Virus record (IMG/VR): IMGVR_UViG_2693429748_000011
DNA: 4,541 bases
Direction: 5' to 3' (one strand)
Source of the DNA: a virus
Lineage: Duplodnaviria > Heunggongvirae > Uroviricota > Caudoviricetes
Part shown: positions 2,585 to 4,541 of the stretch, piece by piece
Layout: the number at the start of each line of letters is the position of its first letter
Numbering within the stretch: the stretch's first letter is position 1
Notes under the pieces: generated by a model
What the model was told of the DNA's origin: nothing
Seen by the model: only the letters and a program-made list of their open reading frames with translations
Database searches by the model: none
Program-made: the position numbers and the translations under genes

Positions 2585-2677
2585 AGCAGCCACGTAATAA
2601 ATATCCGGTTTCATTTTTATATGCCAGCAATGGCAGGGATTTGTTCACCCTTAAATCTGTAATGAGGTTAAAACAAA

Positions 2678-2788: not shown

Positions 2789-2799
2789 GGATGTGCACA

Positions 2800-2991
2800 A
2801 TGAATACAGTATTTGCACTCGTTCTGACGGTTTTTCTTGTTTCCGGTGAACCGGTTGACATGGTTACTGGCGTATACAGCTCAATGAAAGAATGTATGAC
2901 TGCCGCAGCGAAACAGAAAATTCCCGGTGACTGTTATCCGGTCGATAAAGTTATTCACCATGATAATAACGAAATCCCGGCAGGTCTTTAA
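2800..2991 (+). CDS. Hypothetical small exported/membrane-anchored protein (63 aa), third copy, identical to 1122-1313
   Basis: 2789-3020 appears base-for-base identical to 1111-1341. The upstream partner gene is lost in the gap. Confidence 0.65.
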   Translation: MNTVFALVLTVFLVSGEPVDMVTGVYSSMKECMTAAAKQKIPGDCYPVDKVIHHDNNEIPAGL

Positions 2992-3075
2992 AACAGTTCC
3001 GTAATAAATATCCGGTTTCATTCTTATATGCCAGCAATGGCAGGGGTTCGCTCAACCTTAATTAAGGAGAAAAAC

Positions 3076-3351
3076 ATGATTACCAGTTATGAAGCCACTG
3101 TTGTAACTACTGATGACATTGTTCACGAGGTTAATCTGGAAGGAAAGCGTATTGGCTACGTGATTAAGACAGAAAATAAAGAAACCCCATTCACTGTGGT
3201 TGATATCGACGGTCCATCAGGCAACGTTAAAACACTTAACGATGGTGTAAAAAAAATGTGTCTGGTGCACATAGGAAAGAATCTGCCCGCAGAAAAAAAA
3301 GCCGAATTTCTGGCAACTCTGATTGCAATGAAATTAAAAGGTGAAATCTGA
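3076..3351 (+). CDS. Hypothetical protein (91 aa), moron-like accessory gene with its own RBS; function unknown
   Basis: ATG 3076 preceded by a strong AAGGAG (3064-3069, 6-nt spacing). MITSYEATVVTTDDIVHEVNLEGKRIGYVIKTENKETPFTVVDIDGPSGNVKTLNDGVKKMCLVHIGKNLPAEKKAEFLATLIAMKLKGEI. No signal peptide, Lys-rich. Followed by a palindrome at 3361-3381. Absent from the paralogous context at 2585-2677. Confidence 0.7.
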   Translation: MITSYEATVVTTDDIVHEVNLEGKRIGYVIKTENKETPFTVVDIDGPSGNVKTLNDGVKKMCLVHIGKNLPAEKKAEFLATLIAMKLKGEI

Positions 3352-3360
3352 AAAAAAGAA

Positions 3361-3381
3361 AGCCTGCACACTGTGCAGGCC
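3361..3381. terminator. Perfect palindromic stem-loop after the 91-aa gene; terminator-like (U-tract is on the minus-strand side)
   Basis: gcctgcac-act-gtgcaggc is an 8-bp GC-rich stem. On the + strand it follows an A-run (aaaaaaagaaa) and has no T-run after it; on the - strand it reads hairpin then tttcttttttt, a classic intrinsic terminator. It may terminate antisense transcription or stabilise the moron mRNA. Confidence 0.4.
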
Positions 3382-3450
3382 TGAGTGAAGAACCTGGGAC
3401 ATTTATTCATCACTCGCAGTAATTTTAATCTGAGTTGAGGTTAAAACAAA

Positions 3451-4512
3451 ATGAGTAAAGTCTTTATTTGCGCCGCCATTCCGGACGAAAAGGCAACAAA
3501 AGAAGAAGGCGCTAAACCTGTAGCCACTGCCATTGAAGCCGGCGACGAACGCCGCGCCCGCGCAAAATTTCACTGGCAATTCCTGGAACATTATCCGGCT
3601 GCTCAGGACTGCGCTTATAAATTTATTGTCTGCGAGGATAAACCTGGTATACCCCGCCCTGCCCTCGATTCCTGGGATGCTGAATATATGCAGGAAAACC
3701 GCTGGGATGAGGAGTCTGCTTCCTTTGTCCCGGTTGAGACTGAATCCGAACCGATGAACGTCACTTTTGACAAGCTGGCCCCTGAAGTACAGAACGCTGT
3801 CATGGTTAAGTTCGACACATGTGAAAACATCACCGTTGATATGGTGATTAGCGCGCAGGAACTGTTGCAGGAAGACATGGCAACATTCGACGGACATATC
3901 GTTGAAGCGTTGATGAAAATGCCAGAAGTTAACGCCATGTGTCCGGAGATTAAACTGCATGCCATCGGGTGGATTAAGCATAAATGTAAGCCTGGTGCAA
4001 AATGGCCAGAAATTCAGGCAGAGATGCGCATCTGGAAAAAATGTCGCGAAGGTGAACGCAAGGAAACCGGAAAATACACGTCTGTTGTTGATCTCGCCCG
4101 TGCCAGAGCCAATCAACAGCACACTGAAAATTCAACAGGAAAAATCAGCCCGGCCATTGCTGCCATTCATCGCGAATACAAGCAGACATGGAAAACACTG
4201 GATGACGAACTGGCCTACGCTCTCTGGCCTGGTGATGTGGATGCCGGAAACATTGACGGCAGCATCCATCGCTGGGCAAAAAATGAAGTTATCGACAACG
4301 ACCGCGAAGACTGGAAGCGTATCTCGGCATCAATGCGCAAACAGCCTGATGCCCTTCGCTACGACCGCCAGACTATTTTTGGCCTTGTCCGTGAACGTCC
4401 GATCGACATTCACAAAGACCCTGTGGCACTGAACAAATACATTACTGAATACCTGACTACAAAGGGCGTGTTTGAAGATGAAGGAACAAATCAGAGCGCA
4501 ACTGATACTTGA
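3451..4512 (+). CDS. Hypothetical prophage protein (353 aa), acidic, function unknown
   Basis: Long ORF with start ATG 3451 and GAGG at 3437-3440. The first 21 codons and RBS region are conserved in a second copy at 2664-2740. No Walker, HNH or obvious DNA-binding motif recognised by eye. Overlapping antisense ORFs judged spurious. Confidence 0.8.
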   Translation: MSKVFICAAIPDEKATKEEGAKPVATAIEAGDERRARAKFHWQFLEHYPAAQDCAYKFIVCEDKPGIPRPALDSWDAEYMQENRWDEESASFVPVETESEPMNVTFDKLAPEVQNAVMVKFDTCENITVDMVISAQELLQEDMATFDGHIVEALMKMPEVNAMCPEIKLHAIGWIKHKCKPGAKWPEIQAEMRIWKKCREGERKETGKYTSVVDLARARANQQHTENSTGKISPAIAAIHREYKQTWKTLDDELAYALWPGDVDAGNIDGSIHRWAKNEVIDNDREDWKRISASMRKQPDALRYDRQTIFGLVRERPIDIHKDPVALNKYITEYLTTKGVFEDEGTNQSATDT

Positions 4513-4541
4513 GGTGTACTGGCAATAGCGGACACTACCAT

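Follow-up and report, generated by a model that had tools for sequence, protein, structure and literature searches.

Our starting question was why, in one short stretch of prophage DNA, two neighbouring genes adjoin each other directly in one place and are split by about 370 extra base pairs in another. The DNA concerned, hereafter the window, is the whole stretch of 4,541 nucleotides that was analysed. It consists of pieces of contigs, stitched into a patchwork and separated by runs of N at positions 446-458, 1342, and 2741-2788. It begins with a fragment of a gene for a Rha-family regulator. Context A (459-1341) then contains the end of the Rha gene, dicB, and a small gene encoding a DUF1482 (YdfD-like) protein. 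An IS1 element (1343-2100) lies between this and context B (2101-2740), where dicB and DUF1482 run directly into the beginning of a 353-aa gene. Context C (2789-4541) comprises the end of dicB, a DUF1482 gene (2800-2991, plus strand), a 91-aa open reading frame (3076-3351), and the 353-aa gene (3451-4512). DicB, DUF1482, and Rha were recognised in the window by Pfam, and the DUF1482 paralogue in context B matched PF07358 with an E value of 2.9e-21. According to the original prediction, the extra DNA is moron-like, was inserted into one paralogue, and encodes an unrecognised protein that is a candidate for an undescribed function.

The arrangement described for context B is accurate. The stop codon of DUF1482 (2584) and the ATG of the 353-aa gene (2678) are separated by a gap that measured 93 nucleotides. 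In context C, alignments delimit an additional segment of approximately 367 nucleotides (3062-3428, plus strand), and sequence shared with context B picks up again, at the end of the segment, at TCTG.GTTGAGGTTAAAACAAAATG, just as had been noticed. The additional DNA was also thought to be present in context A. However, positions 1111-1341 are 100% identical to the first 231 nucleotides of context C (2789-3019). Hence, contexts A and C are one locus. Since context A ends short of the insert, this is visible only in context C. The flanks of contexts B and C are the same only on the right, where 79 nucleotides contain one mismatch and are otherwise identical; on the left, identity is approximately 85% (38 mismatches in 262 nucleotides). 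The TTAA(T) repeats proposed to mark both junctions can be attributed to chance, with four spaced 5-mers found compared to 2.1 +/- 1.8 in shuffled sequences. The uninterrupted arrangement might itself have been an assembly artefact. In context B, the left and right flank elements abut to form an empty slot (2585-2677, plus strand) that is 100% identical to the corresponding loci of complete genomes (L004-L011). Furthermore, among 5426 complete E. coli genomes, at least 3694 have the empty-slot junction, in which DUF1482 is joined directly to the exonuclease gene. We therefore reject the artefact interpretation, and conclude that context B is genuine.

The extra segment carries the strong ribosome-binding site and open reading frame that had been predicted. 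The AAGGAG motif (3064-3069, plus strand, from reading the sequence) is 6 nucleotides before the ATG at 3076, and the coding sequence, of 91 codons plus a stop at 3349-3351, occupies 3076-3351 on the plus strand. The protein, initially unrecognised, is 97% identical to RacC of E. coli BL21 and K-12 (88 of 91 residues, gap-free). It scores 204.2 bits against NCBIfam NF007306 (PRK09790), where the cutoff is 171, with residues 1-91 falling on model positions 1-91, and has a full-length match to PHROG 4778 (E 8.9e-61). The approximately 370-nucleotide segment was matched in 1772 of the 5426 complete E. coli genomes. In K-12-like and BL21 genomes the matching DNA, with 93.5% identity, is annotated 'racC: protein RacC', listed in a review table as UniProt P15033, 'Rac prophage protein RacC'. 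We conclude, on the basis of these matches, that the 91-aa gene is racC, an accessory cassette already named and characterised in the Rac prophage of E. coli. The AAGGAG motif is unchanged in 21 of 24 unique variants of the DNA upstream of racC. The racC codons in the window differ from those of BL21 synonymously in 12 cases and non-synonymously in 3, a sign of purifying selection.

Searches for relatives show that RacC is a very narrow family. When 1.84 billion cluster representatives were searched with a profile, 19 matched, and the credible ones are short RacC-like sequences (30-110 aa). P0122, which at 42% identity is the most divergent of these, is encoded before an integrase gene, and no recE is present. 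The only sources named in a word-indexed search were Escherichia and Shigella. Three long profile matches (1004-1306 aa) were rejected as repeat or low-complexity proteins, and a Pfam match of the 91-aa protein to DUF2969 (E 0.046) was dismissed as below threshold. No defence family in PADLOC-DB matched the 91-aa protein at E <= 0.1, and a profile search of PDB sequences with RacC gave nothing below an E value of 1. The structure model of RacC has a pLDDT of 61, and Foldseek comparison of this model with the PDB found no match with E <= 0.001.

Contrary to the expectation of an undescribed role, RacC has a published activity. In a genome-wide screen, RacC was the strongest blocker of RcaT, the toxin of retron-Sen2, and also blocked RcaT of retron-Eco9 (Bobonis et al., bioRxiv 10.1101/2020.06.22.160242). 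In the same study, RacC relieved every antitoxin deletion mutant of its cold sensitivity, and recE, which adjoins racC, was found to trigger the retron because RecE degrades the msDNA. Blocking was seen without co-expressed RecE. Note that the assay relied on plasmid overexpression of the K-12 allele, and that direct binding between RacC and RcaT was presumed by the authors (bioRxiv 10.1101/2020.06.22.160242). The blocker role was restated in a 2025 review. Given 97% identity, we infer that the copy of RacC in the window would act on RcaT as the K-12 protein does. The original prediction listed host benefit, superinfection exclusion, and anti-phage activity as likely roles. It was right to the extent that racC is an arms-race gene. 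However, the published role is counter-defence on behalf of the phage, rather than host benefit or superinfection exclusion.

Expression of racC has also been described. In K-12, loss of control by RacR derepresses racC by 40- to 70-fold, alongside other Rac genes, kilR and ydaE among them. When racR is silenced, racC, recE, and recT go up together with those genes. Hence, racC behaves as an early-operon gene under repressor control, and is probably not expressed independently in lysogens.

In every context examined, a RecE-family gene directly follows racC. In BL21, the gene order is kilR-ydaE-racC-recE-recT, and the same order is found in two active Rac-like phages, the inducible Rac-SA53 and vB_EcoS-683R6. 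A prophage of O121, at the Rac attachment site, instead has IS1, a dicB fragment, DUF1482, and racC, followed by genes for a RecE-family protein, Gam, and an AAA ATPase. To survey such loci more broadly, IMG/VR records were classed using tblastn probes, with samples consisting of the best 80 matches per query. In all 95 racC loci sampled, racC is followed by a gene whose product has an ExoVIII-type N-terminus, and an Rv2179c-like domain was found downstream of racC in none of the 95. The left neighbour of racC is YdaE in 89 of these loci and DUF1482 in 6. We also took the exonuclease genes as the point of reference. Among the best 80 matches per query, racC is upstream in 49 of 52 loci encoding PD-(D/E)XK RecE of the E. 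coli type (defined as having a C-terminal domain at least 80% identical to that of Rac-SA53), in 0 of 21 loci encoding more distant RecE proteins (50-70% identical), and in 0 of 75 loci encoding Rv2179c-type exonucleases. In 71 of the latter 75, DUF1482 is directly upstream, with a gap of approximately 90 nucleotides like that in context B. Fisher's exact test, comparing 49/3 with 0/75, gives p = 5e-32; because the loci are related to each other, and not independent, this value overstates the independence of the observations.

The proteins themselves fit this division. Intact exonucleases from racC-less loci (L003 and L025) end in an Rv2179c-like 3'-5' exonuclease domain, and the C-terminal end of racC-linked RecE proteins is a PD-(D/E)XK domain. 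Because of how racC is distributed between exonuclease types, the contrast between contexts B and C is better read as one between two types of module than as an insertion into one paralogue. The module types are Qin-like (dicB-DUF1482-Rv2179c exonuclease) and Rac-like (racC-RecE). By the same sequence-based classification, the rarer combination of DUF1482 with racC is a mosaic of both. Thus, the proposal of an accessory cassette holds in part. The segment is discrete and variably present, with its own ribosome-binding site and conserved lambdoid-prophage flanks, but a one-off insertion does not account for a gene that co-segregates with Rac-type RecE. Note that the pairing of racC with RecE is not obligatory, since 3 of the 52 close, and all 21 of the distant, RecE loci are without racC.

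Our best explanation, which we consider likely, is that what we have here is a racC cassette belonging to the remnant of a Rac-like lambdoid prophage, most probably in a genome like that of Shigella sonnei. The cassette would be part of a repressor-controlled early-left (recombination) operon and would fill a defined slot directly upstream of a RecE-family gene, with RacC countering the RcaT released by RecE action. During prophage induction, or infection by a related phage, the RecE-type exonuclease would degrade retron msDNA. Loss of msDNA would free the retron toxin RcaT, leading to abortive infection. With RacC translated from a shared transcript, just ahead of RecE, the toxin would be neutralised, probably through binding by RacC, and so the phage would escape. 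Context B would represent a different module, with Qin-like dicB-DUF1482 followed by an Rv2179c-like 3'-5' exonuclease, and without racC. The pair in the window would have decayed. This analysis supplies the identity of the protein, the synteny, the association across the population, the evidence of purifying selection, the conserved hairpin, and the slot states; RcaT blocking, triggering by RecE, and control by RacR are from the literature. Counting against this explanation are the position of the 42% identical P0122 before an integrase gene without recE, the use of overexpression to detect blocking, and the occurrence of RecE loci that have no racC. A further point against is that, in the window, racC is followed by a truncated gene fragment of YdfE type rather than by a gene for a RecE nuclease.

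The truncation was evident from comparison with intact relatives. The 353-aa open reading frame (3451-4512, plus strand) corresponds to residues 1-353 of a YdfE-type, RecE-related exonuclease of 823 aa, cut by IS600. Identity to residues 1-353 of the 823-aa protein at locus L003 is 97%, and similarity stops at the stop codon. The intact protein ends in an Rv2179c-like 3'-5' exonuclease domain. No nuclease domain is present in the 353-aa open reading frame, which stops at codon 353, at the end of IS600. This end of the IS3-family element occupies 4510-4541 (no strand assigned). The same junction is found in L004-L011, where the element is annotated 'IS3-like element IS600 family transposase'. 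Hence, racC in the window is not adjacent to an intact PD-(D/E)XK RecE trigger. As the partner nuclease has been destroyed by IS600, the pair has decayed and this copy of racC is probably a relic.

Look-ups of exact sequences located the two genes in different places. The exact 353-aa protein is encoded in complete genomes of approximately 5 Mb, such as HE616528.1 (which we take to be Shigella sonnei 53G), always in the order IS1-dicB-DUF1482-353aa-IS600 and without racC. The exact RacC is encoded at other loci, separate from that of the 353-aa gene. At one of these, Rha-dicB-DUF1482-racC leads into a RecE-family gene of which 11 codons precede the cut made by IS600. Consistent with this, BLAST showed that positions 2789-3455 of the window are 99.7% identical to a racC locus (locus R; L019-L021) in complete Shigella-type genomes. 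Positions 3424-4541 are 99.6% identical to a racC-less locus (locus Q; L004-L011) in the same kind of genome. The exact look-ups point to a Shigella-type source having two separate loci.

It follows from the two sets of matches that context C joins a racC locus to a YdfE-type locus, and that these are separate in complete Shigella-type genomes. The switch occurs inside an 11-nucleotide string shared by both, TGAGGTTAAAA (3433-3443). No such join was found in the 5426 complete E. coli genomes, and it was absent from the 95 sampled racC loci, from GTDB species representatives, and from JGI metagenome contigs. The join may have arisen by a rare recombination event, or else it is a chimera created during scaffolding. 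If the latter, the order of racC and the 353-aa gene is an artefact of assembling two prophage loci, and the contrast between arrangements with and without the insert occurs in no single real genome. This is a serious contender, though we rate its chances at somewhat below even. The patchwork nature of the window, with three runs of N and duplicated pieces, is what such an artefact would leave. So too is the composition of context C, where sequence from locus R (2789-3455) gives way to sequence from locus Q (3424-4541), complete with the same IS600 cut, at a hybrid junction absent from all four collections. However, 11 identical bases at the switch are too few for joining by a k-mer assembler, and a genuine, strain-specific recombination event at the conserved leader would give the same sequence. 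Importantly for the racC cassette interpretation, only the right junction is in doubt; the identity of racC, and the existence of both types of arrangement, are unaffected.

We turn now to the slot in which racC resides. To the left is a conserved flank (3027-3061, plus strand) consisting of TATGCCAGCAATGGCAGG, which contains a small hairpin (TGCCA-GCAA-TGGCA), and then GGTTCGCTCAACCTTAA. To the right, the flank and exonuclease leader (3423-3450, plus strand), beginning TTTTAATCTGAGTTGAGGTTAAAA, are invariant in 23 unique racC-exonuclease spacers. The left flank, TATGCCAGCAATGGCAGG...CCTTAA, precedes racC whether this lies behind ydaE or DUF1482. It is also found upstream of alternative cargo at locus L139, and racC-less loci have it immediately ahead of the exonuclease leader. 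Both flanks are thus kept across neighbourhoods that otherwise differ. In some RecE loci that lack racC (L139, L143, L166, L167, L170-173, and L177), the slot is filled by another open reading frame, of 95-98 aa (98 aa at L139), with equal spacing between ribosome-binding site and start codon. This belongs to PHROG 2434, a family of unknown function. Remote homology between RacC and PHROG 2434 was considered and rejected (BLASTP E 5.2; hhalign probability 0.3%). Since the PHROG 2434 open reading frame is unrelated, the slot has at least three states: empty, racC, and PHROG 2434. A tentative extension, which we would not rate as probable, is that Rac/Qin-type prophages may exchange cargo at the position between the conserved TGCCAGCAATGGCA element and the exonuclease leader, with cargo matched to the type of nuclease encoded downstream. 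PHROG 2434 proteins might then block other defence systems that sense RecE-type nucleases, and the racC cassette might perhaps also encode an antisense sRNA, ending at a terminator on the minus strand.

The terminator in question is a conserved hairpin just after racC (3360-3382, minus strand). It was originally described as a perfect palindrome, but is a stem of 8-10 bp, GCCTGCAC/GTGCAGGC, with a 3-nucleotide loop, and is not followed by a T-run on the sense strand. Folding is predicted at -16 kcal/mol, with z between -2.4 and -2.8. Among racC loci, the stem exists in at least four sequence versions (GCCTGCAC/GTGCAGGC, AGCCTGCG/CGCAGGCT, AGCCTGAG/CTCAGGCT, and GGCCTGCAC/GTGCAGGCC), and the loop is varied or inverted. 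The versions differ by paired changes, which argues for a structure under selection. Together with a T-run at 3350-3359 on the minus strand, the hairpin resembles an intrinsic terminator, and no other site in 2789-3700 does so. On the sense strand, the A-run consistently precedes the hairpin. Hence, the configuration is terminator-like on the minus strand only, and a role as sense-strand terminator was rejected, as that strand has no U-tract.

Could the hairpin be part of a gene for an antisense sRNA, running from approximately 3415 to 3350 on the minus strand and carried beside racC? We regard this as unlikely. Such a gene would explain why the sole terminator-like site of the region is on the minus strand, why paired changes maintain the stem, and why the T-run is invariably on that strand. 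In addition, the motif TTGTTT-N16-18-TAAAAT precedes the site on the minus strand and is unchanged in 23 variants of the spacer, and there is a sub-threshold Rfam match on that strand, shaped like the sRNA family OmrA-B, at 3434-3355. However, the promoter-like motif fits at 8 of 12 positions only and was not called by a promoter scan. Since it overlaps the ribosome-binding site and leader of the exonuclease gene, its conservation is uninformative. Similarly, the OmrA-B match of 22.5 bits (E 0.54) compares with a gathering score of 40 and reflects resemblance in shape only, and the body of the RNA differs between K-12-type spacers and those of the type in the window.

A different possibility is that RacC is mainly an accessory of RecE/RecT recombination, which modulates the exonuclease or guards DNA ends, and that blocking of RcaT is a side effect of overexpression. 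The constant presence of a RecE-family gene next to racC, in 95 of 95 sampled loci, would fit, as would association of racC with the PD-(D/E)XK type of nuclease and its absence from Rv2179c-type modules. However, RacC blocks RcaT when RecE is not co-expressed, and rescues antitoxin deletion mutants. Furthermore, a divergent homologue occurs without any recE, distant RecE genes manage without racC, and RecET recombineering works in the absence of racC. We consider an accessory role in recombination distinctly improbable.

Least probable of all is a classic moron, meaning an autonomous inserted cassette that is transcribed while the prophage is repressed, to the advantage of the lysogen: variable presence at a fixed junction between conserved flanks, a strong ribosome-binding site of its own, and a conserved hairpin after the gene are what it has in its favour, but the hairpin is terminator-like on the opposite strand only, racC in K-12 is silent until RacR repression is lifted, there is no PADLOC defence-family match, and the published activity is counter-defence. 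Variable presence was confirmed by comparison of complete E. coli genomes, in which the junction has racC in 1772, and is empty in at least 3694, of the 5426; racC is thus not a core gene in all. A simple consensus scan, which weak promoters could escape, identified no sigma-70-like promoter on the plus strand in 2789-3700. The GC content of the cassette, at 39%, resembles that of dicB (38%) and DUF1482 (43%), with the exonuclease gene at 49%. With no promoter found, no sense terminator, no distinct composition, and expression controlled by the repressor in K-12, racC fails the strict definition of a moron.

Both racC and what it does have been published before, and our finding thus adds no new kind of system. 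Even so, the tracking of racC with PD-(D/E)XK RecE, and its absence from Rv2179c modules, fits the published idea of a blocker paired with a trigger. The possible exchange slot, with its uncharacterised PHROG 2434 gene, provides a modest lead towards a candidate counter-defence function. There is also a caution for genome scans, because the apparent insertion in the window stems partly from stitched contigs of two prophage remnants.

Finally, we compared the cassette with the closest known systems. In the HK97 and lambda literature, the moron of a lambdoid phage is a promoter-gene-terminator cassette between conserved genes. Like these, racC forms a discrete unit that some prophages have, and others lack, at one fixed junction between conserved sequences. 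Unlike these, it has no recognised promoter and no sense terminator of its own, is repressed in the lysogen, has a composition like that of its neighbours, and acts for the phage. In phage T4, the small protein Dmd neutralises the toxin of an abortive-infection toxin-antitoxin system. RacC would work similarly, although this is an analogy and not family membership; sequence and structure searches detected no relationship, in sequence or fold, between RacC and Dmd-like phage toxin inhibitors. The racC-recE pair described for the tripartite toxin-antitoxin systems of retron-Sen2 and retron-Eco9 (bioRxiv 10.1101/2020.06.22.160242) involves the same blocker family, and the order of blocker then RecE was found in 95 of 95 sampled loci. 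It differs from the window in that the trigger partner is not intact here, and blocking by the allele in the window is predicted from sequence. Closest is RacC of the K-12 and BL21 Rac prophage. Both genes encode 91 aa, with 88 identical, have the same ribosome-binding site and flank elements, are directly upstream of a RecE-family gene, and have a hairpin right after the stop codon. The differences are that the left neighbours are dicB-DUF1482 (Qin-like) in the window and kilR-ydaE in Rac, that the hairpin and spacer in the window are another sequence version, and that the gene downstream is a YdfE-type N-terminal fragment cut by IS600 rather than RecE. Lastly, although PHROG 2434 proteins (95-98 aa) have no detectable homology to RacC, they share with it the same slot, the same flanks, the same spacing between ribosome-binding site and start codon, and a position upstream of RecE-family genes.

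The window is several contig pieces stitched together. The pieces occupy positions 1-445, 459-1341, 2101-2740 and 2789-4541, with N stretches at 446-458, 1342 and 2741-2788. Two of them, 1-445 and 459-1341, overlap one region of the Shigella-type racC loci (L019-L021), with differing offsets. Note that the start of context C, the piece with racC, is duplicated by context A, the piece beginning at 459. Furthermore, context C fuses a pair of loci that lie apart from each other in complete genomes. An IS1 copy, on the minus strand at 1343-2100, has 100% identity to the IS1 copies of Shigella-type loci. This copy has been clipped on the left, where it follows a single 'n' (1342).

IS600 is present at 4510-4541 of the window, at 9060-10300 in the racC-less locus L004, and at approximately 8410-9630 in L021. 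Both in the window and in L004, the YdfE-type exonuclease gene is interrupted by this element after codon 353. A second IS600, found in complete genomes at the racC locus (L021), interrupts the RecE-family gene after codon 11. Hence, the two exonuclease genes of this lineage have been inactivated by one type of insertion sequence. The large exonuclease genes (L003 6198-8669, L025 3501-5939 and L022 7393-10539) are mosaics in their own right. Three types of N-terminus, K-12-type, 'MSTDKQ' and YdfE-type, combine with two unrelated kinds of catalytic C-terminus, either PD-(D/E)XK or Rv2179c-like 3'-5' exonuclease. At one locus, L159, the PD-(D/E)XK C-terminus is joined to the YdfE-type N-terminus.

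The slot upstream of RecE-family genes, occupied elsewhere by racC, can be filled by a PHROG 2434 gene encoding 95-98 amino acids. This is found in L139 (approximately 4330-4630), L143, L166, L167, L170-173 and L177. No homology of the PHROG 2434 protein to RacC was detectable. A divergent RacC homologue, P0122 (42% identity), is encoded at 3468-3743 of L266. Here, the operon comprises repressor, N-antiterminator, sieB, Kil, YdaE and RacC-like genes; the integrase follows directly and recE is absent.

On the left, the slot is flanked by a conserved element (3027-3061 and 2619-2661), inside which is a small hairpin, TGCCA-GCAA-TGGCA. The element also has an ATG, at 3028, lacking a ribosome binding site. 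This codon shares the reading frame of racC, resulting in the 107-amino-acid form given by some annotations, and in L139 the equivalent ATG shares the frame of the PHROG 2434 gene. The ATG of context B, which has no racC, starts a 13-codon open reading frame ending 16 nt upstream of the exonuclease ATG. In the spacer between racC and the exonuclease gene, K-12-type hairpins have an identical stem and a 5-nt loop in either orientation, TATGG or CCATA (compare the spacers of L082-type and L127-type loci). Comparison of these sequences suggests that the two orientations arose by inversion at the palindrome.

Two A8 runs lie within racC, at 3249-3256 and 3293-3300. Several database RacC variants, P0043, P0032 and P0075 among them, are frame-shifted exactly between these runs. 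The racC copy of the O121 prophage is annotated as frameshifted, and its first A8 run has one additional A. Such changes of frame could be homopolymer sequencing errors or reflect slippage-prone tracts.

An Rfam search of the window identified two RNA elements on the plus strand, both adjoining the Rha/antirepressor-like gene on its upstream side. These match the Hfq-binding RNA isrK (29-105; 64.8 bits against a gathering score of 50) and C4 antisense RNA (130-217; 79 bits against a gathering score of 45). The isrK and C4 pair looks like an antisense control module for an antirepressor, of the P1/P7 immI type.
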